A DNA stretch of 64,000 bases, from NCBI GenBank assembly GCA_963803705.1, contig CAWDNU010000001.1:429836-493835 (forward strand). The letters run 5' to 3'. Position numbers and translations under genes: made by a program. The DNA comes from an uncultured Pseudobdellovibrionaceae bacterium (GTDB taxonomy: Bacteria > Bdellovibrionota > Bdellovibrionia > Bdellovibrionales > UBA1609). The notes beneath the pieces were generated by a model. The model was given only the letters and a program-made list of their open reading frames with translations. It made no database searches and was not told the origin of the DNA. Shown in pieces: positions 5,275 through 49,767 of the stretch (the stretch's first letter is position 1; each line of letters starts with the position of its first letter).

Positions 5275-5315
5275 TTTTATGGATGGTACGCTGGTTTAAA
5301 GCTTGAAACCTAAGT

Positions 5316-5440
5316 GGGCCTGTTGAAAAAGCATCATCTTCGTTGTTGCCTTCGCTTAAATCTCATTCGACGTAGATAAACTACGACTCATTCGATCTTA
5401 AGCTTGGACGCCTAGAATCTAATACTTTTTCAACAGGCCC
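5316..5440. repeat. nested inverted-repeat element (16-bp perfect outer arms, inner stems and a 9-nt direct repeat)
   Basis: gggcctgttgaaaaag at 5316-5331 is the reverse complement of ctttttcaacaggccc at 5425-5440. Inner pairs are gcttaa 5354-5359 with ttaagc 5398-5403, and cgtag 5371-5375 with ctacg 5381-5385. The direct repeat ctcattcga occurs at 5362-5370 and 5387-5395. Confidence 0.7.
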
Positions 5441-5595
5441 AAGTGATACTTCCAAAACATTATAAAAACAGATAATCGTAAATCTTATATTAGATTGACC
5501 CGTGTTAGCAGCTTCAGAATTGACACAATTTGGCTCAAATTAGTTTAGACAGGATATTGGTCATCACTGTTTTTAATTTCTGATATAACTTTGGA

Positions 5596-9835: not shown

Positions 9836-11731
9836 TTAAATTTCTGTTTCATAGCTTTTTAATTTACTTTCGGCTTTCTGAAAATATTCTTCTTCTGGGA
9901 TGTCTCGCTCTACAATCTGTTTCCATTTTGATATAGCAGTGTGGATCTTACCTAAGTCCTCCATTAAAATGCTGTCTTGATACAAGGATCTTATTTCTAT
10001 GCGCAATAGACCTCTCGCCTCAGATTCTATTTTCACAAGTTGGGCATCAAATTCGTCAATCTTTAATCCTTTTCGTGCTGCAAGGACTGCCTCTCTGTAA
10101 TTTTCTTTCGCAAACTGTAGTTTTGATTCATCAAGAGCTTTTTTTAAAGTGCTTTCTAGGGCCGATTTGATCGAAGCTATTTCCCTAGAGGCCTTAACCC
10201 TATCATTTCCTTTGGGATCAGGGTATTTACCTTTTAAATACATACCGTACCACTTAAGAGCATCTTCCCAGTACTGCTGTTCTTTAAATTTATCACCTTT
10301 TCTTATAAGGGCTCGTCCTCGGTTAAGTCGGTCAGCGTATTTCTGCTGTCTAAGCCTAATCTCATCATTTTTTCTGTCGACTGCGTCTGCTTGATCGAAG
10401 AGCTTCGCGATCTCTTCATTTTCTGGTGAAAGTTCAATCGCTGGCTGTAAGCATAATTTTATGACATCACTTCCTTCTGTAACCTTGTCTTTGCAAGACT
10501 CTATAATTGCACTCACTTTTTCTATAATAGCCAAGCGATCTCTTTCTTGAGCTTCCATTTGGCTCTGTCTTTCCAACATCTCTAGTGCTGTTTGACATTT
10601 AACTCCGATTTCAGCAGCGTCTTGGTCATCAGGTCGTAAATCTTGGATGCGCTGGACTTCCGATAAACATAGTGACCACCTAGCCTCACCAATATATTGG
10701 ATAGCAGCAACTTTTGCGTTATCTATAATTTTGTTCTCTTCCGCACGCTGCCTCAAAGCTGCTATTTCCCTTTGAGCAGCTGATTTGTTGGAAGTTCCTG
10801 CTGGCATAAATGCAAATAGGGCAGCCAACAGAATAAAACCCGCTGTTATGCCGACTCTGACTTTCTTTTGAGGACTCCATTCGTTTAGATTAACCCAACC
10901 GTCTTTGACTTTTTTGACACCCATACCGCTATTAGTAATAGGACCATTAGCAAGATGTCCCATATCAATCGGCTTGTAGTTTTCTGGAAGATTATAAATT
11001 TGTTTTTCAACGATACTATCTTTGATTTCAAATAGTAACTTGTAGTCGTGAATTGAAATGATATCACCAGATTTGAGTTCAATTTCATTATTGGCAGGTA
11101 GTTGGTGACCATTTAAAAATGTACCATTCGAGCTTCCCAAGTCTTTAATTAAAAATTTATCATTAAGCTTGTAGACTTCGAAATGCTGTCTACTTGATTT
11201 ATCGTGATCGATAAATACATCACACGTCTTTGCTCGACCAAAAGTCCATTTATGGGCATCCATCTTGAGCTCATCAACTACACTGCCGAATTCAATTTTT
11301 TTAAAAGTTGCGACTAAATCTTGAGTACTCAAAGAAGTTTTTTCGAAATTTCCAGCATAAGTTTCTTCGGGCTGAAACTCATTAACCTGATCGTTGTCAT
11401 CTTCTTCATTTTCCAACGACTGTATTTCTATATCTTCAATTTCTTGAAGAACTTCAAAATTGTAGGGCGGTATCGAAAAGTGACCTTGCCCGATGACCTC
11501 GATGGACTTTTCACTTAGGCCGTTTACCACTAGCTTTCCTGCTTGTGATAAACGCTCCACTAGAAGCTTGTCACCCAAGTGAACTATTTTTAAATGCTGC
11601 CTAGAAATGCCGGGGAAAGATTCTAGTTTAACGTCACAAGAATCATCTCTTCCGATAACAATTTCATCACCGCTGGTAATTTTTAATTCTTGATGTGTTT
11701 CACCATCAATAAAACATTTGAGCTGAAACAT
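9836..11731 (-). CDS. membrane protein with two N-terminal FHA domains and a long C-terminal helical/TPR-like region
   Basis: FHA signatures IVIGRDDSCDVKL..SRQHLKIV and WTFGRAKTCDVFI..SSRQHFEV..DLGSSNGTFLNG. TM segment VRVGITAGFILLAALFAF. Confidence 0.8.
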   Translation of the reverse strand: MFQLKCFIDGETHQELKITSGDEIVIGRDDSCDVKLESFPGISRQHLKIVHLGDKLLVERLSQAGKLVVNGLSEKSIEVIGQGHFSIPPYNFEVLQEIEDIEIQSLENEEDDNDQVNEFQPEETYAGNFEKTSLSTQDLVATFKKIEFGSVVDELKMDAHKWTFGRAKTCDVFIDHDKSSRQHFEVYKLNDKFLIKDLGSSNGTFLNGHQLPANNEIELKSGDIISIHDYKLLFEIKDSIVEKQIYNLPENYKPIDMGHLANGPITNSGMGVKKVKDGWVNLNEWSPQKKVRVGITAGFILLAALFAFMPAGTSNKSAAQREIAALRQRAEENKIIDNAKVAAIQYIGEARWSLCLSEVQRIQDLRPDDQDAAEIGVKCQTALEMLERQSQMEAQERDRLAIIEKVSAIIESCKDKVTEGSDVIKLCLQPAIELSPENEEIAKLFDQADAVDRKNDEIRLRQQKYADRLNRGRALIRKGDKFKEQQYWEDALKWYGMYLKGKYPDPKGNDRVKASREIASIKSALESTLKKALDESKLQFAKENYREAVLAARKGLKIDEFDAQLVKIESEARGLLRIEIRSLYQDSILMEDLGKIHTAISKWKQIVERDIPEEEYFQKAESKLKSYETEI

Positions 11732-12681
11732 TAGAAGTTACCTCGTTTTTTTAAATCACATTCTAGCAGCACTTTCTTTGCTTCTCTGTAGCGCGCATTG
11801 GTCGGATCATTAAGTAGATTCATAATATTTTTCATTGATGACTTGCACACCTCAAACCGACCAGCCTGTTTATTTGCTAGCCCTCCTTTAAATTGTTTTT
11901 CCAACAGATCGTCTGAAAATTGTAAAGAAAGCCTAAGTAGTCTTCTTGCCTCTGAATGTGCAGGTTCGATTGACAAGACAGCCACAAATGCATCTCTAGC
12001 ATAGAAAAACTGCCCCCGGTCAAAGTCTCTGCGTCCTTGCACAAAAATTGATTGAGCATTACGCCCATTTTCAGTCGAAAAAATAGAGTCTTTATATTTT
12101 CTATCTAATTCTTTTATAATATCTTCAATACTGTTGATTCTTCGCTCGCTTTTCTCATTATTATCAAACGACTCGATTTTCACGCTACTACTCTTTTTTT
12201 TCACAGGCGGGGTAGTAAAGTAGTAGCCAGAACCCATAACCACTATAAACAATAGTACGTATCTGAGCCTATTTGTACCTGGTCGCAAATTATTGTCTTT
12301 CAGCTTAGGCGCTGCTTTAGGACCGTTTTCAACAAACTGCAAAACGTGATCGCCAATTTGGATCACTTCATTTTTTTTTAGCTCTACTTGCTTTGTTTTT
12401 ATCCCATTCACAAGAATAAAGTTATTTTTAGTTAGATCTTGAATAATATAAGATTGGTCTTGAAAAATTAATCGCACATGCTGTCGACTAACTTTAGAGT
12501 CATTTTTTAGTTGGATATGGTTTGATGGGTCTCTTCCAATTAAAACTTCACTAGATGATATTTGAAAAACTGCACCTCGCTCATATCCTTTATTAATTTT
12601 GATAAAGAATCGTTTTTCACTGTTATTTTGAACAATGGTGTTATTGTTTAGCTCTGAGTTTTTATGGCTTATGTTGTTCAA
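11731..12681 (-). CDS. FHA-domain membrane protein
   Basis: VLIGRDPSNHIQL..VSRQHVRLIF..DLTKNNFILVNG; TM segment LRYVLLFIVVMGSGYYF; 1-nt and 4-nt overlaps with neighbours. Confidence 0.8.
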   Translation of the reverse strand: MNNISHKNSELNNNTIVQNNSEKRFFIKINKGYERGAVFQISSSEVLIGRDPSNHIQLKNDSKVSRQHVRLIFQDQSYIIQDLTKNNFILVNGIKTKQVELKKNEVIQIGDHVLQFVENGPKAAPKLKDNNLRPGTNRLRYVLLFIVVMGSGYYFTTPPVKKKSSSVKIESFDNNEKSERRINSIEDIIKELDRKYKDSIFSTENGRNAQSIFVQGRRDFDRGQFFYARDAFVAVLSIEPAHSEARRLLRLSLQFSDDLLEKQFKGGLANKQAGRFEVCKSSMKNIMNLLNDPTNARYREAKKVLLECDLKKRGNF

Positions 12682-14249
12682 GCGTCATGCTCCACGGGGA
12701 TAAACGAAACTATATAATATGCTACTTCATGACTTCCATAAACGGCTTGCATCGCCAACTCGAAGGTGTCCCCAGAAAAATCTAGTTGATTTGATATAAT
12801 TTGGTCAGGACTCAACTTAAGTTGATCTATTAGGTCTCTTAAACTCATTTTTAAAGACTGGTCTGAAATTTGAAAAACTGTTGTTCCCTGGATATTTATT
12901 AAACCTGTACGCTCTTCGAAACCAGCATTAAATGCAGTGATTGTTTCATCGTTAGCTCGAATTGCGACTGCGGGGTAGCCAATGAGTTCGACCATATTTT
13001 GCATTTCAAAATTACGGTCTCGCTCGAAAACCTCTTCCTGTGCGGTGTCACCAACTTGTCTGTTTAAGGCGCTATTTAGGTTTGAATACAACTTTTGTAA
13101 AACAGGAAACTTAAGTTTTGTTTCCAGTTGTGCTGTTCCATTTCTTAAGTATAGGTCGACTTGTCTATTTAAAACTCGAATTGGGTAGCTTATTAATCTA
13201 GAAACAAAGAAATAAAGAATCAGTGCTACTATTAAAGACAAAGCTAGGGTTTGAACAAATAAACTTAAAGTTCTGTTAAAATCCATCATACGAGTGTCTA
13301 CGTCGTATAATACCACACCGTAATATCTAGTAGACTCAATTGATTTTTTTGGATCGTAATACTTAAAAGCTTCTATAGCTAAAATGTTCTTACTACTTAT
13401 GAATTCGATAAAAGTTTTATTATCAGCTATTTGCCGCCCTTTATGAAAGCCTTTAATTTTCGGCATCTGTCCAGCCATTCGTGCTGGAGCTACAATTTCG
13501 CCTCGAATATCCGTTATATAAGCCTGAATAACTCCCGGTTTTTGGTAAGTTGAATCAAGGTCAATTGCAGAGAAAAGACGCTTAAATAGAGGATCTTTAT
13601 TTTGGGTAATTACTTCATGAACGATATTTTGAACGTTTCTTAAACTAGACTCTTCTATACTTTCCCTTAGAATTTTCAATAAAGGTATTACAGATAGGCT
13701 TGTCGACAATACCACTACCAGTATAAAAAATAGTCCAACCACCCATTGAAAATCCATATACTCTGTCATTTTATAGATGCCTGGTAGAACGGTATTTTCA
13801 AAGTAATGATTTGTTTTTTTCTTAAAAATTTCTACTGGCGGGTCATAGGGCTGGATAATATCTGCATCATCTATATGTAGAGCTAAATCCGATACAACTT
13901 CTTCTGAATGGGTTGCTAGTTCATTTTTACCTTGAAAAAGCGCCAGCCCACCGCTCTTAGCATTTTGATCAACAACTTCTGTAACTGTATCATGAAAGCT
14001 TAACTTATCGCCGGTGTAGACTTTTGATTCGGCTATTTTAACACCGTTGATGTAGCTTCCATTTGTAGATTTTAAATCTTTCAAAATTAGCAGGTCGCCT
14101 TTTTTTTCAAGGCTTGCATGTTTCTTCGACACATTGTTGTTAGCGATAATAATATCACACTCTGGCGAGCGGCCAAGTACCGAAAGACCATCTTTTAATT
14201 GGATGACTTTACCCATTTGCTGTCCAGTTAAGATTTTAAGCGCTAACAC
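12678..14249 (-). CDS. FHA-domain sensor-like membrane protein (FHA, TM, extracytoplasmic region, TM/HAMP-like, PAS-like; no output domain)
   Basis: LSVLGRSPECDIII..VSKKHASL..DLKSTNGSYINGV; two hydrophobic segments; the C-terminal ~110 aa are PAS-like by pattern only. Confidence 0.75.
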   Translation of the reverse strand: MLALKILTGQQMGKVIQLKDGLSVLGRSPECDIIIANNNVSKKHASLEKKGDLLILKDLKSTNGSYINGVKIAESKVYTGDKLSFHDTVTEVVDQNAKSGGLALFQGKNELATHSEEVVSDLALHIDDADIIQPYDPPVEIFKKKTNHYFENTVLPGIYKMTEYMDFQWVVGLFFILVVVLSTSLSVIPLLKILRESIEESSLRNVQNIVHEVITQNKDPLFKRLFSAIDLDSTYQKPGVIQAYITDIRGEIVAPARMAGQMPKIKGFHKGRQIADNKTFIEFISSKNILAIEAFKYYDPKKSIESTRYYGVVLYDVDTRMMDFNRTLSLFVQTLALSLIVALILYFFVSRLISYPIRVLNRQVDLYLRNGTAQLETKLKFPVLQKLYSNLNSALNRQVGDTAQEEVFERDRNFEMQNMVELIGYPAVAIRANDETITAFNAGFEERTGLINIQGTTVFQISDQSLKMSLRDLIDQLKLSPDQIISNQLDFSGDTFELAMQAVYGSHEVAYYIVSFIPVEHDA

Positions 14250-18416: not shown

Positions 18417-18467
18417 CTAGGTACCAGGTTCTCTAGGTGCCAGGTTCTGCTCTAGGTGCCAGGTTCC
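18417..18467. repeat. three tandem direct repeats CTAGGTRCCAGGTTC
   Basis: ctaggtaccaggttct 18417-18432, ctaggtgccaggttct 18433-18448, ctaggtgccaggttcc 18452-18467. Confidence 0.85.
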
Positions 18468-18592
18468 GAACGCTGGTCACGCTGTGTCTATTAGAGTTAG
18501 ATTCTTAGTTTTAACTTGGTCGCTGACTAATTAGTATTTCAAATGATCAACGCTTATGCAATGAACACGTAAAAAATAAGGCCTACCCGTAT

Positions 18593-28114: not shown

Positions 28115-28223
28115 AGCCTAAGTTTTAGGAAGCGCAGCCCCAAAGGTCAATCTTTAGGCTTTGCATTGCACTGCAAGGCACCTTTTAGGCCAATTTAAGA
28201 AACATTGTTAAATGAATTCCAGG

Positions 28224-28362
28224 AAATATTTGTCTTAATTTATATTCAATGTCAGCATGAAAAGTGAGTTCGGATTGGGACCTTTGGTGTTAGCTAAAAA
28301 AGACCAGCCGTATGTTCGAGCCTTTTCATGCTGACATTGAATATAAATTAAGACAAATATTT
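28224..28362. repeat. long hairpin element: 41-bp perfect inverted arms around a 57-nt spacer
   Basis: aaatatttgtcttaatttatattcaatgtcagcatgaaaag at 28224-28264 is the exact reverse complement of 28322-28362. The spacer ends (tgagttcgg ... gttcgagc) resemble, in reverse orientation, the core ends of the elements at 37301 and 49587. Confidence 0.85.
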
Positions 28363-28407
28363 GCTACAAACTGTTTTAATAACAAGTTTAAAAAATGGAG
28401 ATTTTAT

Positions 28408-29202
28408 ATGAAGTCATATTTAGATCTTATGGAAAAAGTTTATGTCCAAGGGTTGGATCGAAAAGATAGAACCGGCACTGGCACGCGCAGCCTTTTTGGT
28501 CATCAACTTCGTTATGATCTTAAGGAAGGCTTTCCGCTAGTAACGACTAAAAAGGTACATTTGAAGTCGATTATTTATGAGCTTCTTTGGTTCTTAAAAG
28601 GTGACACTAATGTTAAGTATCTTCAAGAAAATGGGGTTCGCATCTGGAATGACTGGGCTGACCAAACCGGAGATCTTGGCCGGGTTTACGGAGCCCAGTG
28701 GCGATCATGGCAAGGACCAAACGGCAAAGTAGTAGATCAAATTACTAATGTAATTGAGTCTATTAAAACTAATCCATCTTCTAGAAGACACTTAGTGGTT
28801 GCTTTTAATCCTGGCGAGATTGACCAAATGGCACTTCCTCCGTGTCATGCGTTTTTCCAGTTCTATGTTGGTGATGGAACCCTTAGTTGTCAGCTTTATC
28901 AAAGAAGTGCTGATATTTTTTTAGGAGTTCCATTTAATATTGCAAGTTATGCCTTACTTACTCTGATGATGGCACAGGTCTGTGATTTAACCCCGGGTGA
29001 CTTTGTTCACACATTTGGAGACGCACATATTTACCACAATCATTTTGATCAGGTTAAAACTCAACTTCAAAGACAGCCTAAGCCACTACCTAGAATGATC
29101 TTAAATCAGTCAGTAAAAGATCTGTTTGAGTTTGATTTTAATGATTTCACCTTGTTGGATTACAAGCCAGATCCAGCAATAAAAGCTTCAGTGTCTATAT
29201 AG
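28408..29202 (+). CDS. thyA: thymidylate synthase
   Basis: [20 protein letters not shown].., [11 protein letters not shown] active-site Cys. Start moved from 28312 because the extension is encoded by the hairpin arm. Confidence 0.95.
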
Positions 29203-35474: not shown

Positions 35475-37316
35475 ATGTGTGGCATAGTTGGGTACTTAGG
35501 CGCAAAAAGCACTAAGAATATATTGTTCGACGGGTTGAAAGCTTTAGAGTACCGAGGTTATGACAGTTCAGGGCTTTGTATTTTGAATCAGGGTCAGTTT
35601 ATAAAGTTTAGGGCACCAGGTAAAATTGTCGAACTTGAAAAAAAAGTTATTGGTAAAAATCTGGAAGGTCATGTTGGCATAGCGCATACCAGATGGGCAA
35701 CACATGGTCCGGCTGTTGAAAAAAATGCTCATCCTCATGAGGTCGGTGACATATGTATTGTCCACAACGGTATCATTGAAAACTACCATACTATTCGGCA
35801 ACAACTTATTAAGCGCGGGGCCAAGATAAATTCAGACACAGACTCTGAGCTTGTAGCACATCTAATTAACGAACAACTAAAGATAAAGGGCGACTTTTAC
35901 AAAGCAGTGGTTGAGGCGCGCAAAATGCTTGAAGGCGCATTCGCTGTACTCGTGATTTCGAAAAAAAATCCAAATGAGTTGATTGCATTTAAATCGGGTC
36001 CCCCAATGATTTTGGCAAAAGGAGAAGACGATTTTTATATAGCCAGCGATGTTCAGGCGGTTATTAAGTACACTAAAACTGTGTACTATTTAAACGACCA
36101 TGAAATGGTACACATCAAAAATAAAGACGCAAGCGTCACTGATATTCAGGGACAAGAAATACCAATTGAATTTGAAACGATTATTTGGAACGCGGAGCAA
36201 GTCGATAAGAATGGCTTTGCTCATTATATGTTAAAGGAAATTTATGAACAGCCGAATGCCGTAAGCTTGGCTTTATTACCACACATTGATTCCGAAACCC
36301 AAACATTAAAGATAAGTGGATTTTACGATTCACTAGATCAAACTAATGAATTTTTAAAAAAAATAAAACGTATTCAAATTATTGCTTGTGGAACAAGTTT
36401 TTACGCAGGTATGTACGGGGAATACGTTTTTGAAAAGTTGGCCGGAATTAGTGTCGATATCGATATTGCTAGCGAATATCGATATCGAAGTCCAATTATA
36501 GATTCTGACACCTTAGTTATTTTTATATCTCAAAGTGGTGAAACTGCGGATACTTTGGCAGCCCTTCGCTTAGCTAAGTCTGCCGGAGCAAGAACTTTAA
36601 GTGTCTGTAACACTTTCAAATCCAGCATAGACCGTGAAAGTGAATTTTCAATTTATATGAACTCAGGCCCAGAAGTAGGTGTCGCAAGCACAAAAGCTTT
36701 TACGTCTACTTTAGCTATCATGGCAACTTTAGGTGTGGCTATAGCCAAAGCCAGGGGTAAGCTATCAGAGCAAGACGAAAAAAAGTGGGTTGAAAGTTTA
36801 CTTAGCCTGCCATTGAAAATGGAGAATGTGCTGGCTTACGACAAATTTTTTAAAAAGGTCAGTCATTCACTAAAAAGTAAAAAAGGATTTTTATACATGG
36901 GGCGCGGGGTGAATTTTCCAATAGCAATGGAAGGAGCGCTAAAGTTAAAAGAACTTGCATATATGCATGCAGAAGGCTTTGCTGCTGGTGAGTTAAAGCA
37001 TGGGCCCATGGCCCTAATTGATGAAGATATGATGATCGTAATTCTATGTCCTGAAGATGACTTGTACGATAAGACAATGAGCAACTTAGAAGAGGTAAAA
37101 GCTAGGAAGGGCTTGGTAATAGGTTTGGGTGATTTGGGTGACACCAAGCTAGAATCTATGTGTGAACATTACCTAGGATTACCGGCGGCGGACTGGATCA
37201 CCTATCCAATACTGGAAACATTACCCCTTCAACTTTTAGCTTACCACGTAGCCAATAGTTTAGGTCATGACGTTGATCAACCAAGAAATTTAGCCAAATC
37301 CGTAACCGTCGAATAG
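35475..37316 (+). CDS. glmS: glutamine--fructose-6-phosphate aminotransferase
   Basis: MCGIVGY N-terminal nucleophile, two SIS domains, canonical C-terminus NLAKSVTVE. Confidence 0.96.
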   Translation: MCGIVGYLGAKSTKNILFDGLKALEYRGYDSSGLCILNQGQFIKFRAPGKIVELEKKVIGKNLEGHVGIAHTRWATHGPAVEKNAHPHEVGDICIVHNGIIENYHTIRQQLIKRGAKINSDTDSELVAHLINEQLKIKGDFYKAVVEARKMLEGAFAVLVISKKNPNELIAFKSGPPMILAKGEDDFYIASDVQAVIKYTKTVYYLNDHEMVHIKNKDASVTDIQGQEIPIEFETIIWNAEQVDKNGFAHYMLKEIYEQPNAVSLALLPHIDSETQTLKISGFYDSLDQTNEFLKKIKRIQIIACGTSFYAGMYGEYVFEKLAGISVDIDIASEYRYRSPIIDSDTLVIFISQSGETADTLAALRLAKSAGARTLSVCNTFKSSIDRESEFSIYMNSGPEVGVASTKAFTSTLAIMATLGVAIAKARGKLSEQDEKKWVESLLSLPLKMENVLAYDKFFKKVSHSLKSKKGFLYMGRGVNFPIAMEGALKLKELAYMHAEGFAAGELKHGPMALIDEDMMIVILCPEDDLYDKTMSNLEEVKARKGLVIGLGDLGDTKLESMCEHYLGLPAADWITYPILETLPLQLLAYHVANSLGHDVDQPRNLAKSVTVE

Positions 37317-37494
37317 AATTTGTAAGATATGTTTTTTAAATTTAATTGTATCATTTATGTATTAAAAAACTCAAACAAACCTTGTCATTTGCCTTGCATA
37401 CGCAAGGCTTCATGCCAACGAACTCGTTTTTAATACATAGATGATACAATTAAATTTAAAAAACATATCTTACAAATTCTATTCGACGGTTACG
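37301..37494. repeat. long hairpin element: 68-bp arms (67/68) around a conserved 58-nt core
   Basis: Arms 37301-37368 and 37427-37494 are reverse complements with one mismatch. The left arm includes the last 13 coding nt and the TAG of glmS. The core 37369-37426 is ~80% identical to the core at 49643-49704. Confidence 0.9.
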
Positions 37495-37507
37495 ATTGGT
37501 CTTTATT

Positions 37508-38866
37508 TTAAATATTTAGCCATTGGAAAAAGCTCTTTTTGGCGACGGCAAGTTGGGTGTCTTTTCTTAAGCGCTTTAGGTCAGCCTTTTTGATTTTCTT
37601 TGGCTTTACTTTCGCCAGTGACTCTTCGCTTAATTTTGGTAATAAACTAAAATTTATATTCATAGGTTGATAATTTTCTTTTTCTTCGCGAAGAAAATTA
37701 TACAATGATCCAAAGGCAGACGCACGAGGTGGCGAAGAAAACGTTTGGTCGCTTAGTTTTTGATGAATAAATTTCGCAACTAAAAGTCCAATGCAAGTTG
37801 AATCAAAATATCCTTCTACACCAGTGATTTGTCCTGCAAAAAATAAGTTGGAATTTTTTTTAGAAGATAGATCATCGTTCAGTAACTTTGGCGAATTGAT
37901 ATACATATTTCTATGAATGCTGCCAAGTTTAACAAATTCTGCATTTTCAAGTCCTGGGATCATTGAAAAAATTCTTTTTTGTTCTGGGTAAGCCATTTTA
38001 GTCTGAAAGCCAACCATATTGTAAGCAGTGCCTTCCCTATTATCTTGTCGTAATTGTACTACGGCGTAGCATCCGTGATTTGTATGGGGGTTTCTTAGGC
38101 CTTTATAACTTAGGGGACCAAACCTTAATGTGTTATCACCACGCTCGACGATCTCTTCTATAGGCATACAATTTTCAAAGTAAGGGGTGTTTTTTTCAAA
38201 TTCTTTGGGCTCAATCTTTCGCGCTTGTTTTATTTCATCAATAAGCTTCAAGTACTGTTCGCTGTCCAAAGGGCAGTTTATATAATCACCACCTTTTTCG
38301 CCGTCACCCCACCGATCGGCCTTCCAGCATATGTCCATGTTAACGCTATCTGTAGCTATTATTGGTGCAATAGCATCAAAGAAATAAAGTGAATTCAAAC
38401 CGAAATGTTTTTGCAAATTTTTAGCTAAATCTGATTCAGTAAGTGGGCCAGTGCATACAACAGTAATATCTTTCATATCCTCGATATCTGTTACAATTTG
38501 ATCGATACATTCAATGTTTGGGTGTGAAGTCATAATTTTAGTTAACTGCTTGGAAAATTTTTCTCGGTCTACGCTTAACGACATTCCAGCTGGGACGGCG
38601 TAATCTTTAGCTATTTTTAGAATAATAGATCCAGCCTGTTCAGCTTCCCACTTAAGCTGGCCTGAAGCCGAATAGTTGGTTTGACTGCCAAAAGAGTTTG
38701 AACAAACAAGCTCGCCGAAGTCGGCGCTCTTGTGCGCAGGAGTAAGCTTGATTTTGCGCATTTCAAATAGCTTAACCTTGTAGCCTTGCTCGGCTAACTG
38801 GTAAGCGCATTCAGAGCCAGCTAAGCCTGCGCCAACAACATTTATAATAGGTTTTAAATGACTCAT
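37508..38866 (-). CDS. trmFO: methylenetetrahydrofolate--tRNA-(uracil-5-)-methyltransferase
   Basis: VVGAGLAGSECAYQLA FAD motif; full-length Gid/TrmFO pattern, 452 aa. Confidence 0.9.
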   Translation of the reverse strand: MSHLKPIINVVGAGLAGSECAYQLAEQGYKVKLFEMRKIKLTPAHKSADFGELVCSNSFGSQTNYSASGQLKWEAEQAGSIILKIAKDYAVPAGMSLSVDREKFSKQLTKIMTSHPNIECIDQIVTDIEDMKDITVVCTGPLTESDLAKNLQKHFGLNSLYFFDAIAPIIATDSVNMDICWKADRWGDGEKGGDYINCPLDSEQYLKLIDEIKQARKIEPKEFEKNTPYFENCMPIEEIVERGDNTLRFGPLSYKGLRNPHTNHGCYAVVQLRQDNREGTAYNMVGFQTKMAYPEQKRIFSMIPGLENAEFVKLGSIHRNMYINSPKLLNDDLSSKKNSNLFFAGQITGVEGYFDSTCIGLLVAKFIHQKLSDQTFSSPPRASAFGSLYNFLREEKENYQPMNINFSLLPKLSEESLAKVKPKKIKKADLKRLRKDTQLAVAKKSFFQWLNI

Positions 38867-38969
38867 CTGGCCTCATATCTATGTGAATAAACGAACCTAT
38901 TCAAGCTTGTATAGATCTTTTTGTTAAAGACTTTGACAAGGGCCACCCTAACCCTGTTTTAATCTAAGT

Positions 38970-39356
38970 GTGAAAAAAAAACCTAAACTAAGCACTGCAA
39001 CAGAGGTGTTGCAAAGCTTGCTCACTAAAAGCTCGATGCCAATATCTAATGAATATAATCGTTGGCGAGTGATTCAAAATTGGTCGGAAATCATCGGTCC
39101 ACAATTAGCATCTAGAACCTTCCCTATAAAATATTTCAAAGGCCACCTTTACATATGGGCCTCATCATCATCGGGTCTTCAGCAGTTTTATTTTATATCA
39201 GATATCATTCAAAAAAAAATTAACGACTACATGGATAAGAATTGGGTTCACAAAATAACCTGGACCCAGAACAAAGGTTTGCTGGATAAAATATCTGATC
39301 AAGATAAAAAAGTTTTGGACGGGTTAATTAAAGGCAGTGAATCTAAACGTCCCTAA
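38970..39356 (+). CDS. DUF721 (DciA-like) protein
   Basis: 128 aa; W..IIGPQLASRT.P..F..G.L.I block typical of DUF721; GTG start. Confidence 0.6.
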   Translation: MKKKPKLSTATEVLQSLLTKSSMPISNEYNRWRVIQNWSEIIGPQLASRTFPIKYFKGHLYIWASSSSGLQQFYFISDIIQKKINDYMDKNWVHKITWTQNKGLLDKISDQDKKVLDGLIKGSESKRP

Positions 39357-39526
39357 ATTACTTCCAGAAGCAGTTCTTTGCCTTAAGTTTGCAACCGCCA
39401 ACAGACCAAACAACAGACTAAAAAACAGTCGGGTTTCATATCCTGAACTGCATTCCGCAGGATTCAACGCCTTGAACTGTTTTCAGCTCGTTTGCTGTCT
39501 AGCTTCGCTGGCGCTTTTCATTATTT

Positions 39527-40312
39527 TTACTTTTGCTTGTTTTCTTTTGCTTGGATGCTTCGTCTCATTAGAGATTTGATGTAGCTGTCGTCTTTTTCTT
39601 CGCCTAGAAATCTCATAACTTTGGTGTGTAAAGTTGGATCGTAGATAAGTTGGCCTAAAGTTCCCTTGCGATCGTTTATAGCATCAAGAGATTGATTTAG
39701 CCTATCAAGAGTGGGTTTGATTTGAGCTTGAGATTTTATTTGTTTTGCAGCACCTGCAATATTTTCTATGGCTTTGTCAGCGTTTCTTCCCATACGTTCA
39801 AAATCAGCTCCGTTGGAAAACTGTGTGATAATAGTGTCGATTTTTTTAAGTGTTAGACTAACCTGTTCAAAGTCAGAAAGCTTATTACTAATTTGGTCCA
39901 TTAAGTCAGGGGTATCATCAGCTTTGATCACTGATTCATTCGCCAAGGGTTTGCCGCCCTCGCCTTGAGAGATAAATATATACTTATCCCCAAGCGCACC
40001 TTGGGTCTTCATGGAAACCAAACTCTTATCGGTAATTAGGTTTTCATAACCTTTGTTAACTCTGACTTCAATTTTGATCTTACTTTTTTTGTTATCAAAG
40101 GAAATATCTGAAACGTGACCAACATCAATTCCAGAAAAGGACACAATAGATCCGAACATAATACCCTGTGAATTATTCACATACGAATAATAGGTATTTT
40201 TTCTTCTAAATAAAGATTCATCACTAGTTAAGGCTGTAAATGCGATAATAAATAGTGCAAAACCAATTATCACAAAGGCGCCCGACCATAGTTTTTCTTT
40301 ATTTTGTTCCAT
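39527..40312 (-). CDS. mlaD: MCE/MlaD-family lipid transport substrate-binding protein
   Basis: N-terminal TM followed by an MCE domain; downstream of ABC ATPase and permease genes. Confidence 0.75.
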   Translation of the reverse strand: MEQNKEKLWSGAFVIIGFALFIIAFTALTSDESLFRRKNTYYSYVNNSQGIMFGSIVSFSGIDVGHVSDISFDNKKSKIKIEVRVNKGYENLITDKSLVSMKTQGALGDKYIFISQGEGGKPLANESVIKADDTPDLMDQISNKLSDFEQVSLTLKKIDTIITQFSNGADFERMGRNADKAIENIAGAAKQIKSQAQIKPTLDRLNQSLDAINDRKGTLGQLIYDPTLHTKVMRFLGEEKDDSYIKSLMRRSIQAKENKQK

Positions 40313-40326
40313 AAGCTAATCCTTTT

Positions 40327-41064
40327 TTATAATTTAAGTGTACCATCCATAAATTTTCTTAAACTGCTATTAGAGCTTTCTATATCATCGGGCAAAGCCT
40401 CTTCCGCGATGCGACCATCTTTTATTAGTAAAATACGATCGCAAACAGCCAATGCTGTAGGCATATCATGGGATACAAAAACAGAAGTAAATCCTAAGTC
40501 TTTCATCTTCATAATAGTTTTTTGAATATTTAAAGTATTAAACGGATCTAGCCCGGCCGTTGGTTCATCAAACAAAATTATTTCAGGCGAAAAGATAATA
40601 CTTCTAAGTAGGCCAACGCGCTTTTGCATACCTCCAGATAATTCTGCAGGAAATAGCTCTTCAGTATTTTCAAGTCCAATATCTTTTAAAAGTTTGGCAA
40701 TTTTTGCTGTAATCTGTTCTTCAGAAAAGTTAAAGTGTTCCCTTAAGGGGTAAGCCAAGTTTTCTTTAACTGTTAAAGAATCAAACAGAGCACCGTTTTG
40801 GAACACATATGAAATTTTTTTTCGAACTTCAGCCCATTGGTCTTCGTCGTAATCTTGTATTTGAGTGCCGTTGAAGATAATCTGACCTTCATCTAATTTT
40901 TCAAGTCCAATTAGAGCCCTTAAAATTACGCTTTTTCCCGTTCCAGATCCACCTAGAAGTCCTAAGCATTCTCCCTTCAGAAGTCTAAAATTGATATCGT
41001 TATGCACAGCTTTGCCGCTAAAACTTTTCTTTAAATTTTTTACTTCAAGTATTACATCTTTCAT
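40327..41064 (-). CDS. mlaF: ABC transporter ATP-binding protein (MlaF-like)
   Basis: Walker A GGSGTGKS, signature LSGGMQKRVGLL, Walker B ILFDEP. Confidence 0.85.
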   Translation of the reverse strand: MKDVILEVKNLKKSFSGKAVHNDINFRLLKGECLGLLGGSGTGKSVILRALIGLEKLDEGQIIFNGTQIQDYDEDQWAEVRKKISYVFQNGALFDSLTVKENLAYPLREHFNFSEEQITAKIAKLLKDIGLENTEELFPAELSGGMQKRVGLLRSIIFSPEIILFDEPTAGLDPFNTLNIQKTIMKMKDLGFTSVFVSHDMPTALAVCDRILLIKDGRIAEEALPDDIESSNSSLRKFMDGTLKL

Positions 41065-41079
41065 AAATCACACAGGCAG

Positions 41080-41849
41080 TTAGGCGTAGGGATAGATCAT
41101 CCAGTAAATTTTAGTCATAAAATAATCGCTGATAAAAATTAAAATTGAACCAGTTACAACTGACATCGTAGTGGCTTTTCCAACACCTTTAGTGCCTTCA
41201 GTAACATTCATTCCAAAATAACACGCAGGCAATGCAACACAAAGAGCAAAACCAAAAGGTTTTAGAAAGCCCGAGATAAATTCCCACGGGGTGATAGTAG
41301 TTACTATTCTTTGATAGGTAAATAGCCAAGGAAGACCCAGTTCGACGTTGGCTATTACAGAGGTCGCAAGAAGTGCTAAAAAAGAAGTCAGCAGAGTCAA
41401 GATAGGAAAAGAGATTAGACAAGCCATAATTCTGGGTAAATAGATCTTTTGATAAGGTGAAGCCCCTAAAGCCCTTATAGCGTCTATTTGTTGGGTGACT
41501 TTCATAGAGCCGATCTCAGAAGCTACACCAGCGCCAACTCTTGCTGCACACATCAAAGCTGTGAACACAGGGGAGAGCTCTAAAAATATAGCTAATGACA
41601 TAACTTTTGGTACATAAGGCTTACCACCGTACTTTTCTAGGCCTAATCCAAATTGTAAAGTCATTACAAAGCCAGAGCTAAGTGCAGTTATCGCAATCAA
41701 CGGAATTGAACATATGCCTAAGTTGTAAATCTGGGTGTAAACATCTTTAGCTTTTGGTCTTTTTTTTTTAACTCGCGAATGGATTGCGCAAATACCTCGG
41801 CCAGTCCTCCCATCGTTGCCAAAGAAGTCTTAACTATTGGAACTACCAT
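41080..41849 (-). pseudogene. mlaE: MlaE-like ABC permease, apparently frameshifted in a poly-A tract
   Basis: The ORF track gives only the C-terminal 206 aa (41080-41700). Manual translation upstream reads on as PKAKDVYTQIYNLGICSIP. A further N-terminal piece, MVVPIVKTSLATMGGLAEVFAQSIRELKKK, starts at an ATG overlapping the upstream stop (ATGGTAG). The two parts are out of frame across the homopolymer at ~41760-41769. Confidence 0.65.
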
Positions 41850-42328
41850 GCTTTAAAGCCTGTCAAAAACTTATCATAGACAGATAAATCTTTTTCAAAA
41901 TTTGAAGGCTGGGCGGTTAAGACCAGTATATACTGGCAAGAGTTTTTGATAAAACTAGTAACGGCTAGCTTATTTTCGAAACCTTCTAGAGTTGCATCTA
42001 TCTTGCCCCTTAAGGCCTTACGATTATTAAACTTAAAGCGAATTGGATCACTGGTTTCGCTTGCTTTAAAATTAGAAGCTAATTCCATAAACCAATTTTC
42101 AAGATCAAGCTCTATGCTTTTAATGCATTTGGATTTAACGGATATAGTTGAACTGGTAGAGCTTGACAGCCAAGCGTGATCCACAGATTCATTTTTGATT
42201 CTATAAAAATCATTACTAGGATATTCGTATGAGTATCTAGTGGATTTCTTGGCAGTTTGATCTCCGATCTTTACAGACACACAGCCAGACACAAAGTAGA
42301 GAAATACTAAAGCAATCAATTTATCCAT
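41843..42328 (-). CDS. hypothetical lipoprotein, first gene of the mla-like operon
   Basis: Lipobox LYFVSGC; 161 aa; stop overlaps the mlaE start. Confidence 0.55.
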   Translation of the reverse strand: MDKLIALVFLYFVSGCVSVKIGDQTAKKSTRYSYEYPSNDFYRIKNESVDHAWLSSSTSSTISVKSKCIKSIELDLENWFMELASNFKASETSDPIRFKFNNRKALRGKIDATLEGFENKLAVTSFIKNSCQYILVLTAQPSNFEKDLSVYDKFLTGFKAW

Positions 42329-42544
42329 AGAAGTCTATCATACTGACACAGGTTCGAATGACTCACAATAAAAACTCTTCTAAGTCTTTAAGTTAAGCTA
42401 CCCGTAAGTGGCTTGTGTAGAAAGCCACACATCTAGAATTTTCGAAACCACCCGTGCCACAGTTTCACAGATCGGCATTCTGAAGTAAAAAAAAAGGCCA
42501 GCACTTGAGGCCAGCCTTTTTATTTATATAAATTTAAGAACTAA

Positions 42545-42820
42545 CTATTTTTTTAGCATAGATTTAAATTCGCTACCTGGGCGAAATTTTGGATACCAAG
42601 CCGCAGGAATTTTAATTGCTTTTCCTGTTTGTGGGTTTCTTCCTGTTCTAGCTTTTCTTTTTGATTTTGTGAAAGTTCCAAAACCAACTAATTTAACTTC
42701 GTCACCTTTTTTAACTGAAGTTCTTACAGTGTGTATGAAAGCATCAAGTACTCTCTCAGTGTCAGCTTTTGTAAGTTCTACTTCTTTAGACAACTTTTCA
42801 ATTAATTCTGCTTTATTCAT
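42545..42820 (-). CDS. hup: DNA-binding protein HU
   Basis: 91 aa; MNKAELIEKL..GFGTF....RKARTGRNPQTG..I.IPA pattern. Confidence 0.92.
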   Translation of the reverse strand: MNKAELIEKLSKEVELTKADTERVLDAFIHTVRTSVKKGDEVKLVGFGTFTKSKRKARTGRNPQTGKAIKIPAAWYPKFRPGSEFKSMLKK

Positions 42821-43827: not shown

Positions 43828-44285
43828 GTTGATGGCATATAGCTATCTGGTTTTATAAAACTGTGAAAATTTTCAGGACATCATCGGGTCTAGGAGTATA
43901 AAATTGGTGTAATTACAAAGCGATTCTGTGTTTAGTCATTTCCCAAGGCAAACTGACTACAAAGATGTATCCATTTGATACGATCTTGTGTCTTAGATCA
44001 AAATCAGAAGGCGCATCAATCAAAGGTGGGGTTTATTTCAAAAGTAAGCGATCAATTAAAACTTGAGACAATATTTAACTTCTCAAAAGGTGAAATAAGA
44101 AATTTAGATGCAATTCTATATTCAAAGTTTCAGAAAGAGGCGTGAAAATAAATATCTTTAATTACTTCTATTGGAGAGCGAGCTTTACTGAGCGGCTTTG
44201 AGGTAATTAACAGATATCGTTGCGCTCAACAATACCTAGTAGAACGAAAAACTTTTTGATCGATGACTTGTGTTTTGTCCTGCGC

Positions 44286-45038
44286 TCAAACAAGCTTATT
44301 TTTAAGAGCTTTCAATTCACTACGTGTAAGTCCATTTTCTAAAAGCATGTTGTCTATATCTATAGATTCTAAAATTTCATCAAAAATTTGCTGCGTATTT
44401 TTACCTTCATTGAACAGAAGCTTTTCTATCAAAATTTTTTGATCGACTTCCTTTTTACTAGCGTACAGTTTGGAGAGGTTTTTATGACTCAGACTGTGAT
44501 CTTTAGCTGACTCTAATGTAGATACATTAGCTAAACATAAAAGTATGAAAGTGATTAGACCAGTTCTATCTCTGCCAGAGGCGCAGTGGAAAAGAACTGC
44601 TCCGGTAGAACAATTTGCTATTTGAGATAAAACAGATGTTGTGATTTCAGGGAACCTCTCTAGATGCGCCTTATAATACAATGGAGTTGACCACTTACCA
44701 GTTTCTCTCCATTTTTTCCAGAAAGGTGGGTCATGCCCACCATCAAGTGAGATATGCACCGTCTTGATTCGCTCGGGACGAGGAAACAAATCTCCTTTAA
44801 TTTCATGTTTAAAGCGGAGGTCGATAACGGTGCGAACACCATAGTCTTCGATATTTGCCCAGTCATTTTTTGTGAAAGCTTCAACTGAATCCGACCTGAT
44901 GATTCTCTTCATTTTAGTGGGTTGTCCGTTTTGGGTTCGAATGCCACCAAGATCACGAACATTAACAGATCCTTCAAACGTAAGTTCTCGTATAGAGGTT
45001 TTCTCTGAAAGCATAACCCATAATAGGTGTTTGCCCAC
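44286..45038 (-). CDS. protein tyrosine/serine phosphatase (CX5R family)
   Basis: Active-site HCASGRDRTG; NVRDLGG N-terminal block. Start GTG 45038 or ATG 45014. Confidence 0.75.
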   Translation of the reverse strand: MGKHLLWVMLSEKTSIRELTFEGSVNVRDLGGIRTQNGQPTKMKRIIRSDSVEAFTKNDWANIEDYGVRTVIDLRFKHEIKGDLFPRPERIKTVHISLDGGHDPPFWKKWRETGKWSTPLYYKAHLERFPEITTSVLSQIANCSTGAVLFHCASGRDRTGLITFILLCLANVSTLESAKDHSLSHKNLSKLYASKKEVDQKILIEKLLFNEGKNTQQIFDEILESIDIDNMLLENGLTRSELKALKNKLV

Positions 45039-49122: not shown

Positions 49123-49602
49123 ATGAAAGTTTTATTTGTTTGTTTAGGAAATATTTGCAGGTCACCTACTGCTGAAGCGGTTCTTAAATTTAAAATTGCA
49201 GAGAAAGACATGGGTGATTTAGTTCAGTGTGATTCTGCTGGGACCTCTGCATTCCACGAAGGGTCTAAAGCAGATATTAGGTCCTCTAATCACGCCAAAC
49301 TAAGGGGATACAACTTAACAAGTGTATCTAGACAGTTACAAACTGATGATTTTTTTGAGTACGATCTAATATTTACAATGGATGATTCTAATTTTGATAA
49401 TGTTCGTGAGCTTGGTGATTCGATCAAAGCCGATCTTTCAAAAGTTAAAAAGTTAACAGATTTTTGCGTTAAGCATGAAATAAACCATGTGCCCGATCCC
49501 TACAAGATGGGTGACGAAGGGTTCGAACAAGTTTTGGATATTATAGAAGATGCTTGTGAACAGATCCTGAAAACAGTGATATTGCCAAACTTTAAAAATT
49601 AA
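49123..49602 (+). CDS. low-molecular-weight protein tyrosine phosphatase
   Basis: VCLGNICRSP P-loop and DPY motif. Confidence 0.88.
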   Translation: MKVLFVCLGNICRSPTAEAVLKFKIAEKDMGDLVQCDSAGTSAFHEGSKADIRSSNHAKLRGYNLTSVSRQLQTDDFFEYDLIFTMDDSNFDNVRELGDSIKADLSKVKKLTDFCVKHEINHVPDPYKMGDEGFEQVLDIIEDACEQILKTVILPNFKN

Positions 49603-49760
49603 TTGTTACATTTTATGTTCAAATAGATATACATCTTAATAGGCTCAAACAAGCATTGGCATTTGACCTGCAAAATAAGGCAGGCCTTCATGCCAAAGAA
49701 CTCGCTATTAAGATGTATATCTATTTGAACATAAAATGTAACAATTAATTTTTAAAGTTT
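49587..49760. repeat. long hairpin element: 56-bp perfect arms around a conserved 62-nt core
   Basis: Arms 49587-49642 and 49705-49760 are exact reverse complements. The left arm includes the last 13 coding nt and the TAA of the LMW-PTP gene. The core 49643-49704 is homologous to 37369-37426. Confidence 0.9.
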
Positions 49761-49767
49761 AGCGATA

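Follow-up and report, generated by a model that had tools for sequence, protein, structure and literature searches.

Composite hairpin elements with a repeated core and locus-specific arms in an uncultured Pseudobdellovibrionaceae genome

We analyzed a 64-kb stretch of DNA (the window) from the genome of an uncultured Pseudobdellovibrionaceae bacterium, in which three composite hairpin elements, named E1, E2 and E3, were located (Table 1). E1 lies at the junction of the convergent genes glmS and trmFO. Its arms had been recognized as reverse complements in a preliminary description of this DNA, and a repeat search of the window returned the same pair, with 67 of 68 positions paired (99% complementary) across a 58-nt spacer. 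Arm pairing in all three elements is Watson-Crick, save for one transition mismatch in E1. The outer end of the left arm (37301-37316) consists of the final 13 nt of glmS plus its TAG stop codon. This sequence recurs in inverted form as the outer 16 nt of the right arm (37479-37494, CTATTCGACGGTTACG), and the trmFO stop codon is a further 13 nt away. Since the 15 nt at the 3' end of glmS (CGTAACCGTCGAATA) are identical in relatives L002, L003 and L115, the outer end of the left arm is native sequence, as the preliminary description had held, and the right-hand copy is therefore the derived one.

Table 1 Features of the three elements and their flanking genes (window coordinates)
Feature	Position	Strand	Details
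E3 arm, HD-hydrolase side	28221-28264	.	44 nt, inner 41 perfect
E3 core	28265-28321	-	57 nt, 47% GC; opposite orientation to the E1 and E2 cores
E3 arm, thyA side	28322-28365	.	thyA start at 28408
glmS	35475-37316	+	NCBIfam TIGR01135, E 1.4e-231
E1 left arm	37301-37368	.	68 nt, 21% GC; repeat search of the window
E1 core	37369-37426	+	58 nt, 47% GC; ACTCAAACAA..CGAACTCG
E1 right arm	37427-37494	.	outer 30 nt also in independent Logan contig L001
trmFO	37508-38866	-	NCBIfam NF003739, E 2.6e-175; convergent with glmS
LMW phosphotyrosine phosphatase ORF	49123-49602		
E2 left arm	49580-49642	.	63 nt; perfect from 49587
E2 core	49643-49704	+	62 nt, 47% GC; lower stem TTGGCAT/ATGCCAA, apical stem CCTGC/GCAGG
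E2 right arm	49705-49767	.	flush with the mutM/fpg stop codon
mutM/fpg stop codon	49768-49770	-	

The spacer of E1 had been reported to recur at about 80% identity within a second element. This element, E2, is confirmed, with an identity of 77% (48/62) between the two cores. The arms of E2 are 97% complementary over 63 nt, with the inner 56 nt perfect, and enclose a 62-nt spacer; the left arm starts 23 nt within the ORF of a LMW phosphotyrosine phosphatase. A third member, E3 (28221-28365), was overlooked in the preliminary description. It is situated between divergent genes, upstream of thyA, and its 44-nt arms (98% complementary) surround a 57-nt core that has only the termini GCTCGAACA...CCGAACTCA in common with those of E1 and E2. 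The pair of termini CTCRAAC...GAACTC occurs three times in the window against an expectation of 0.1, with flanks that pair at 29-30 of 30 positions at all three sites, and the right block CTTCATGCCAANGAACTCG occurs twice against an expectation of 0.01. The three copies thus make up a small family of composite hairpins whose repeated unit is the 57-62-nt core.

The core is GC-richer than its surroundings and is bounded by conserved, single-stranded termini, RCTCRAACA ... GAACTCR. The E3 core is about 60% identical to the other two (63% and 59%). The intact cores of E1 and E2 fold as an imperfect two-tier inner hairpin of ~37 nt, and the core therefore resembles a REP-like module. In E1, the lower stem is formed by 37382-37388 and 37412-37418, and the apical stem by 37391-37397 and 37402-37408 around an ATAC loop. 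Conserved blocks of the core that had been taken for unpaired sequence are in fact largely paired, with TTGKCAT and ATGCCAA forming the lower stem beneath the apical stem. The co-variation of the apical stem proposed from the same comparison is present, but amounts to a single compensatory change among the 12 pairs shared by E1 and E2. The inner hairpin of E3 is decayed, with 6 of the 7 apical pairs broken, yet its arms are still near-perfect. Read in the antisense direction, the intact core gives an interrupted stem-loop followed by UUUGAG(U)n that faces trmFO and mutM, with the U-rich tails UUUGAGUUUUUU in E1 and UUUGAGCCUAUU in E2. Micro-ORFs within the core share only MK(P/A)C or MP(T/K)NS and have no ATG in E3; beyond these residues they change frame or enter the locus-specific arms, and they were rejected as coding.

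Across the family, the arms are 97-100% self-complementary, with 0-1 mismatches over 41-68 nt. Significant matches to the arms were limited to the partner arm, contig L001 and, in relatives, the native end of glmS, and no further copies of the arms were found in the 64 kb or in the relatives' loci searched. The E3 arms have no similarity to those of E1 and E2 (p 0.14-0.41), whereas the E1 and E2 arms share a segment of borderline significance, identical at 27 of 34 positions (p 0.018-0.03; p 0.001 versus all genome windows and 0.018 against equally AT-rich windows), that sits at differing distances from the two cores. Neither conserved outer termini nor target-site duplications were found among the three copies, the outer bases being aaatc/attgg in E1, tattgcc/agcgata in E2 and ttccagg/gctacaa in E3. 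This agrees with the earlier view that the arms are not transposon-borne terminal repeats, as they are unique to their loci and those of E3 are unrelated to the others. When the cores are removed, the arms abut as an exact zero-spacer palindrome at all three loci. Direct reading of the junctions showed, in every copy, a CTC trinucleotide 1 nt inward of either junction and no microhomology at the core/arm junctions able to prime fold-back. The arm that holds a gene 3' end is found to the CTCAAAC side of the core in both E1 and E2. Within 73 kb of this genome (the window plus Logan contig L169, 8.95 kb, which holds no element), each of the three long hairpins carries the core, and there are no coreless perfect hairpins with arms of at least 18 nt.

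The preliminary description had proposed looking for empty sites among orthologous glmS-trmFO spacers, and one relative provides such a site: in L006, which is rather distant (79% TrmFO identity), the glmS and trmFO stop codons are 1 nt apart and both arms are absent. Because of this 1-nt spacing, the inner 52 nt of each E1 arm may be inserted DNA. The claim that the E1 right arm is an inverted copy of pre-existing local DNA thus stands for its outer 16 nt, the native glmS end, but is doubtful for the inner 52 nt. The closest relative found in the databases searched has 82% TrmFO identity, and the element is absent from the relatives at 79-82%; it therefore lacks conservation. With only three copies and no relative above 82% TrmFO identity, the ancestral state of none of the arms can be reconstructed. 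In other relatives, the junction is taken up by additional genes or by a REP/RAYT palindrome unlike the present one. In L002 it holds a RAYT-like gene flanked by GGTGCCAGGTTCCG..GGTCACA, a repeat other than the core. Palindromic doublets of the lineage's REP/RAYT system were found in L115, L118 and L006, and the REP of this lineage is also present in the window at 18420-18485. In addition, some relatives have long, locus-specific perfect palindromes without the core (L005 9483-9517, L005 20736-20842 and L118 5106-5149), some of these palindromes overlapping ORF ends. A palindrome in L005 with 45-nt arms starts 12 nt within one ORF and shares 2 nt with the purD stop codon. This lineage makes such palindromes without the core of E1-E3. 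The elements also mark the glmS/trmFO junction as a hotspot, occupied in relatives by perfect palindromes, by REP/RAYT elements or by additional genes.

Searches for further copies of the core were carried out in several collections. In 185,579 species-representative genomes, CTTCATGCCAANGAACTC occurred at 108 loci, all at chance level and none with arms; at two of them (L025 and L081) a CTCRAAC motif lies upstream, again without arms. The sole match to CTCAAACAAN{25,50}CATGCCAANGAACTC in JGI metagenomes (L119) is in a GC-rich coding region without arms and was attributed to chance. The 49 matches in viral contigs belong nearly all to one conserved coding region, and none has arms or the left block. 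Plasmid and phage collections contained no core match. Searching the relatives' loci with the E1/E2 core using nhmmer gave weak matches only, among them a 16-nt identity of the E2 core with the conserved FAGQI-coding motif of trmFO in L002, which was judged to be chance. A likeness of the E3 core to sequence upstream of thyA in L002 was not significant (p >= 0.06). Within the window, an exact copy of the 12-mer GCTCAAACAAGC at 44284 is at an ORF 3' end with neither arms nor a right block, and was likewise treated as chance.

No Rfam family matched any part of the window at gathering thresholds; matches at E<1 were confined to generic long hairpins (plant miRNA), such as MIR7993, which scored 61.6 bits where the threshold is 100. 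No repeat family with this layout, and no such recurring "seed", was described in the literature searched, which is in keeping with the earlier statement that the architecture does not belong to a recognized family. The 64-kb window contains no transposase or recombinase genes. No homologue of the RAYT-like gene of L002 was found in it by tblastn, and the only tblastn match to a Y1 transposase (E 0.003) falls in an esterase gene and was rejected. Promoter and terminator scans of the element regions gave nothing above shuffled controls, and a consensus terminator scan found 0 sites in all three regions.

Several known systems share parts of this architecture. Like REP, BIME and REPIN sequences, which are associated with RAYT (Y1 HUH) transposases, the cores are repeated at gene 3' boundaries as small imperfect hairpins that are GC-richer and bear conserved tails of single-stranded sequence, and the same lineage has a bona fide REP/RAYT system at the same glmS/trmFO junction. 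However, in REPINs the arms are the conserved repeat and the loop is variable, whereas here the center is conserved and the arms are locus-specific. The REP of this lineage has no sequence similarity to the core, no RAYT is present in the window, and REP stems are far shorter than the 41-68-nt arms found here (PMC3116915, PMC2817692, PMC3333891). REPs are imperfect palindromes of 20-40 nt with a conserved tail and occur in many copies; the core, with its inner hairpin of ~37 nt and conserved tails, occurs three times in 73 kb and was absent from the relatives' loci searched. Bacterial MITEs (DDE-transposase derived; e.g. Correia/NEMIS, ERIC, RUP and RPE; reviewed in PMC10969869 and PMC3184786) are also short, non-coding, hairpin-forming intergenic repeats that can supply terminators or RNase III sites and sometimes overlap gene ends, but they have terminal inverted repeats conserved across copies and target-site duplications, neither of which is found in E1-E3. 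A conserved sequence exactly at the center of a palindrome is seen with IS1397/ISKpn1 and with the IS110-family element ISPpu9 (PMC1525189, PMC12288879). Those elements are 1-2 kb in length, encode a transposase and enter a repeated palindrome family; the insert here is a non-coding sequence of 58 nt, and no two palindromes are alike.

Eukaryotic foldback elements likewise have long inverted arms around a short asymmetric center, and fold-back priming is accepted as a way to duplicate a flank in inverted orientation (PMC3907307), but such events have been described for eukaryotic chromosomes at kilobase to megabase scale and the arms of foldback transposons are element-borne repeats. In integron attC sites, complementary outer boxes (R'' RYYYAAC and R' GTTRRRY) enclose a variable center; here the conserved part is central, and RCTCRAAC and GAACTCR are not mutually complementary. 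Invertons, which are phase-variable invertible segments, show both orientations in reads and have an invertase nearby; no recombinase gene lies in the window. An intrinsic (Rho-independent) terminator has a GC-rich stem with a 3-8-nt loop and, directly after it, a T/U run; the consensus scan found none at the elements, and in antisense orientation the interrupted core hairpin is followed by the U-rich tails given above. A further comparison is with template switching at quasipalindromes, a process documented in E. coli and phage T4 and, by inference, across whole genomes (PMC5941160, PMC7202029, PMC10710096). The likeness lies in one arm being the exact reverse complement of adjacent pre-existing sequence and in arms that are kept perfect as neighboring sequence diverges (concerted evolution). 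The published cases consulted differ in being short inverted repeats or single hairpins, as opposed to 41-68-nt arms around a 57-62-nt spacer that is itself repeated and conserved.

Our tentatively preferred explanation is that E1-E3 derive from a small repeated hairpin module whose flanks are made into, and kept as, perfect inverted repeats by replication template switching. The arms would not be part of the repeated unit, but would be built from local sequence by template switching across the core hairpin: by folding back or by crossing over the fork, the nascent strand would take the flank that it has just made as template and copy it in reverse complement. Repeated switching would then maintain identical arms through concerted evolution, and the palindrome would grow outward until it met sequence under protective selection. 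By analogy, the core itself may spread via a single-strand DNA transposase or recombinase encoded elsewhere. Template switching is reported both to perfect inverted-repeat arms in bacteria (PMC5941160) and to create whole perfect hairpins in a single event (PMC10710096). It would account for the flipped glmS stop region at the end of the E1 right arm, which is the reverse complement of pre-existing sequence over its outer 16 nt, for an E2 arm that stops exactly at the mutM stop codon, and for arms that are 97-100% paired despite cores that have diverged by 23-40%. The Watson-Crick pairing of the arms fits DNA-level homogenization better than RNA-level selection. Also in favor are the locus-specific arms, the derived state of the right-hand glmS copy, the perfect arms of E3 around its decayed core hairpin, and the palindromes that L005 and L118 have without the core, with the 45-nt-arm palindrome of L005 likewise reaching a stop codon. 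Against template switching, there are only three copies, the core/arm junctions offer no priming microhomology, and a generic host process might leave coreless hairpins, of which there are none in the 73 kb. Moreover, with an L006-like ancestor the inner 52 nt of the E1 arms would be inserted DNA and not copied flank, and the likeness of the E1 and E2 arms (27/34, p about 0.02) hints at arms that are element-borne.

If correct, this would mean that a short hairpin "seed" repeatedly nucleates very long, perfect, locus-specific palindromes via template switching, a parallel in bacteria to the de novo birth of hairpins that has been described for primate miRNAs, and a one-step route to terminators or dsRNA structures at gene ends. 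The large hairpin might block read-through and thereby act in termination or insulation at gene boundaries. The blank consensus scan weighs against such a role, which is also hard to apply to E3. The preliminary description had considered a bidirectional terminator for convergent genes, but this could at most be part of the explanation, given that E3 is situated between divergent genes.

An unlikely competitor, listed first in the preliminary description, is a foldback-type mobile element, in which the core inserts and the insertion itself leaves one flank duplicated in inverted orientation over 40-70 nt. This could proceed through self-priming of a hairpin at a nicked fork or a break, with the core and the second arm produced in a single event. 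Such an element would suit the presence of the core in all three long hairpins of the 73 kb, the shared side of the gene-3'-end arm in E1 and E2, near-perfect arms as expected of young insertions, the lack of common terminal inverted repeats and of target-site duplications, and a site that is wholly empty in L006. However, perfect arms around cores that differ by 23-40% would call for three recently active, already diverged master copies, and the decayed, non-folding core of E3 still has perfect arms. Coreless long palindromes overlap gene ends in relatives, and the window holds no candidate enzyme gene. Nor is any mechanism of transposition in bacteria known to us to leave inverted target duplications of 40-70 nt, which counts against a foldback element. 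Were it nevertheless true, the transposition outcome would be undescribed in bacteria and would represent a new kind of mobile or self-propagating DNA. With every new copy, a giant hairpin specific to its locus, and hence a further terminator or dsRNA, would arise at once at a gene boundary, and even the final codons of essential genes such as glmS would be copied.

We consider it improbable that the core is a small mobile sequence that inserted at the center or loop of pre-existing, locus-specific palindromic terminators, with the inverted glmS end being the older feature. Removal of the cores does leave exact zero-spacer palindromes, relatives L005 and L118 have locus-specific perfect palindromes at gene junctions, the targeting of REP palindromes by IS elements is documented (PMC1525189, PMC12288879), and the CTC inside both junctions in all copies could be a short target duplication. 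Such insertion would nonetheless have had to occupy all three long palindromes in the 73 kb and leave none empty, and three unrelated palindromes would each have needed an RCTCR center. The pre-insertion palindromes would have been 82-136 bp long with nearly no spacer. Long spacerless palindromes of this kind are poorly tolerated in bacteria owing to SbcCD cleavage.

Still more doubtful is a palindromic MITE-like element with its own AT-rich inverted repeats, which would have diverged between copies while remaining self-complementary, the outermost 16-23 nt alone being a secondary extension into the flank. As L006 is without a glmS-trmFO spacer, all 191 nt of it in the window could be inserted DNA, and the E1 and E2 arms have the 27/34 segment in common (p 0.001; 0.018 versus AT-rich windows). 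That segment is at different distances from the two cores, however, and the E3 arms are unlike the others, conserved outer termini and target-site duplications are lacking, and the outer part of the E1 arm can be shown to derive from the host.

Selection for a structured RNA, a giant 3'-UTR or intergenic hairpin in which RNase III-cleavable dsRNA and an apical protein- or RNA-binding module control mRNA stability or termination of the flanking genes, is in our estimation quite improbable. In its favor, two of the three copies directly follow the stop codons at which convergent genes end, the hairpin of the core has been conserved and shows one compensatory change, and a U-rich tract follows the antisense core. 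Set against this, no Rfam family reaches its gathering threshold and the sub-threshold matches are generic long hairpins, E3 is between divergent genes and has lost the core fold, the element is absent from relatives at 79-82% TrmFO identity, and the arms, with their perfect Watson-Crick pairing and no G-U pairs, suggest a process at the level of DNA.

Inverted repeats of this class, with long arms and a ~60-nt spacer, break short-read assemblies. Logan contig L001, an independent assembly, is 100% identical to window positions 37465-42754 and includes the inverted glmS end beside trmFO. It ends 30 nt into the E1 right arm, presumably where a k=31 graph branches at the inverted repeat. Elsewhere, the window has a few probable consensus errors. 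That the palindromes are assembly or amplification chimeras of the metagenome-assembled genome is scarcely credible: inverted repeats are hard for short-read assemblers, the Logan contig breaks there and the window carries those errors, but the same architecture with homologous cores recurs at three independent loci within a syntenic stretch of a 710-kb contig, and L001 independently joins the sequence downstream of trmFO to 30 nt of the right arm at 100% identity. The largest recent survey of perfect inverted repeats covered only spacers of 8 nt or less (PMC13155455) and would therefore miss this class.

Three hairpin elements (E1, E2 and E3) were present in the window, each consisting of a core held between long inverted-repeat arms. 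The preliminary description had claimed the first two; the E1 hairpin was recovered by repeat search and in the sequence, E2 is equally real, and E3 had been overlooked. The left arm of E1 begins 13 nt ahead of the glmS TAG, and its right arm ends 13 nt short of the trmFO stop. E2 is located between the convergent genes for an LMW phosphotyrosine phosphatase and mutM, with its left arm beginning 23 nt within the phosphatase ORF and the right one lying flush with the mutM stop codon. E3 is located between the divergent HD-hydrolase gene and thyA. The GC content is 47% in all three cores and 19-25% in the arms. No transposase, recombinase or reverse transcriptase occurs among the annotated ORFs of the window. 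Just 5' of the HD-hydrolase gene lies a conserved stretch, possibly a leader or a regulatory element; the remainder of that spacer is unalignable with the relative L006.

Coordinates of hairpin elements, flanking genes and other features in the window and in relatives' loci (L numbers)
Feature	Position	Description
Imperfect inverted repeat	5315-5441	27-nt arms at 85%, 17-nt perfect core, spacer 73-93 nt, without E-type termini
Three FHA-domain protein genes	9836-14249	in a row (631, 316 and 523 aa)
GGTGCCAGGTTCCG-N-GGTCAC repeat	18420-18485; L002 11347-11373, 12068-12098; L006 13270-13550; L115 12277-12348; L118 9491-9543	
AAGTTTTAGGAAGC..GCCCCAAAGGTCAA..	28115-28190; L006 16240-16313	conserved directly 5' of HD-hydrolase gene (L006, 79% relative)
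E3	28221-28365	arms 44 nt (41 perfect), spacer 57 nt, spacer orientation opposite to E1/E2
glmS	35475-37316	flanks E1, convergent with trmFO
E1 arms	37301-37368 / 37427-37494	68 nt, 99% complementary, 58-nt gap (inverted-repeat search)
trmFO	37508-38866	opposite strand to glmS, convergent
GCTCAAACAAGC	44284-44295	exact 12-mer of core left end, 3' end of Y_phosphatase3 gene
E2 arms	49580-49642 / 49705-49767	inner 56 nt perfect, spacer 62 nt
Coreless giant hairpin	L005 20736-20842	45-nt perfect arms, 17-nt loop GTCTCAATTTGTATAAT
Smaller locus-specific perfect palindromes	L005 9483-9517; L118 5106-5149	

The 64 kb contain exactly three instances of the pattern CTCRAAC-(25-70 nt)-GAACTC, against 0.1 expected from shuffles, and 29-30 of 30 flanking bases are paired at each of them. 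The right block common to the E1 and E2 spacers occurs twice in the window (0.01 expected). Core identity is 77% for E1/E2, 63% for E1/E3 and 59% for E2/E3, and E3 has only the two termini in common with the others (GCTCGAACA...CCGAACTCA versus RCTCAAACA...GAACTCG). The E1/E2 core is more structured than had been described, as TTGKCAT pairs with ATGCCAA in a lower stem beneath the apical one, and RCTCAAACAAnnn and nGAACTCG remain as an asymmetric internal loop joining the inner hairpin to the giant stem. RNAalifold found 12 pairs in common, one of them compensatory. The inner fold is lost in E3, with 6 of 7 apical pairs disrupted and a folding z-score of -0.6 to -0.7. Exact-pattern scans for further core copies gave no true match in 185,579 species-representative genomes, JGI metagenomes, IMG/VR, plasmids or phages, no Rfam family matched, and the 8.95 kb beyond the window on the Logan assembly contig L169 held no element. 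The 12-mer GCTCAAACAAGC, around which arms and right block are absent, is a chance match or else the remnant of a solo copy. The 16-nt centre of the E2 core (ATTTGACCTGCAAAAT, 49664-49679) is the reverse complement of a conserved FAGQI-coding motif in trmFO of L002 (11022-11051); the window's own trmFO resembles it less closely (37823-37841), and we judge the identity to be probably chance.

Among the sequences compared, each arm matches solely its partner, the native glmS end and a Logan contig. The proposal that the right arm of E1 is an inverted copy of native DNA holds for its outer part: the 15 nt of the glmS 3' end (CGTAACCGTCGAATA) are identical in the relatives L002, L003 and L115, and the flipped copy beside trmFO is therefore derived. 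The inner 52 nt of each E1 arm may instead be inserted DNA, the trmFO and glmS stop codons being one base apart in L006 (GCA_041740515.1). The arms are mostly not element-borne. Those of E3 are unrelated to those of E1 and E2, which have a single 27/34 segment in common, at different distances from the core and of borderline significance (p 0.03 from shuffles and 0.018 when genomic windows just as AT-rich serve as the background).

The window belongs to an uncultured MAG of Bdellovibrionota/Oligoflexia-like affiliation. Its closest relatives have 79-82% identical TrmFO; the closest taxon-named relative among the matches listed is a Pseudobdellovibrio MAG (~61%). The E-type core is in none of the relatives' loci compared, and the glmS/trmFO junction is a hotspot for insertions. 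In L002/L003 it holds a RAYT-like Y1 transposase gene inside a 29-bp inverted repeat, in L118 a 53-bp perfect palindrome of the same GGTGCCAGG repeat, in L115 a REP-like palindrome with an acetyltransferase gene, and in L005 and L117 two to five additional genes. A second, REP/REPIN-like repeat family (GGTGCCAGGTTCCG-N-GGTCAC), unrelated to the core, has three tandem partial copies and one full copy after a DivIVA-domain gene in the window. Relatives carry this repeat on the flanks of a RAYT-like Y1 transposase (NCBIfam REP_Tyr_transpos, E 8e-18) and, as perfect palindromes, exactly at the stop of glmS.

The most informative observation is the contrast in divergence between cores (23-40%, one without a fold) and arms (0-1 mismatches in 41-68 nt, all Watson-Crick). 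Either the copies are very young offspring of masters that had diverged before, or homogenization at the DNA level acts on the arms all the time. For the latter a mechanism is documented: in bacteria, the arms of inverted repeats are corrected and lengthened by intra- or inter-strand template switching (PMC5941160, PMC7202029), and a complete perfect hairpin can arise from one template-switch event (PMC10710096). We tentatively favor a composite element in which a small, repeated REP-like hairpin module would seed the palindrome, and template switching would make the arms and then keep them homogeneous; all conclusions rest on n = 3 copies in one MAG, too few to tell mechanisms apart. Template switching fits the direction of copying, in which the constrained glmS end is the source and the unconstrained side holds the copy; it also fits arm ends that abut protected sequence such as the mutM stop, and locus-specific perfect palindromes elsewhere in the lineage that lack this core. 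The giant hairpin of L005 fits likewise, its left arm starting 12 nt within a hypothetical ORF and its right arm sharing 2 nt with the purD stop codon. A terminator or insulator effect of the elements is plausible but weak. Antisense, the intact core forms a three-tier stem with UUUGAG(U)6 behind it, directed towards trmFO and mutM; a consensus terminator scan gave no sites at the elements, and E3 is at no gene 3' end.

A one-step foldback insertion that duplicated the flank in the act would account for a core in every long hairpin of this genome (~73 kb examined), but the unequal divergence of cores and arms, together with E3, makes it unlikely. For a core that inserted into existing palindromes there is precedent in IS elements that target REPs (PMC1525189, PMC12288879); this reading would require that every palindrome be occupied and that very long palindromes with no spacer came first, and is rather improbable. 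A MITE with long arms of its own would agree with L006, where the site is empty, and with the likeness between E1 and E2 arms. However, E1, E2 and E3 show neither conserved outer termini nor target-site duplications and so lack the defining MITE features, and with E3 and a host-derived outer arm also against it, this origin is improbable. Less credible again is a selected RNA structure. An assembly artefact has a negligible chance, because the architecture is common to three loci and an independent Logan contig (L001), 100% identical to 37465-42754, includes the inverted glmS end and stops exactly 30 nt into the E1 right arm, which is where a genuine inverted repeat would be expected to interrupt a k=31 graph.

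The elements could not be assigned to MITEs, REPINs, attC sites or any Rfam family, and are closest in behavior to a REP-type module together with quasipalindrome template switching. In the literature we found no account of a conserved centre within locus-specific giant arms; the largest survey of perfect inverted repeats covered spacers of <=8 nt only (PMC13155455), and the E-type class is therefore invisible to it. The observation is solid and unusual, and we regard these elements as a variant on known kinds.

L169 and the window are 99.9% identical over 4,740 bp. Within 997-2399 they differ at 1299, 1460, 1670 and 1805, ~500 bp in which the window shows two insertions of a single G and two changes to G. 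Because of these, a 466-aa lipoyl-domain 2-oxoacid dehydrogenase E2 gene is broken up and reads as three ORFs; the differences are probably MAG consensus errors, or else mark a pseudogene. The FHA-domain genes adjoin a T2SS-F-like gene and a DUF192 gene.
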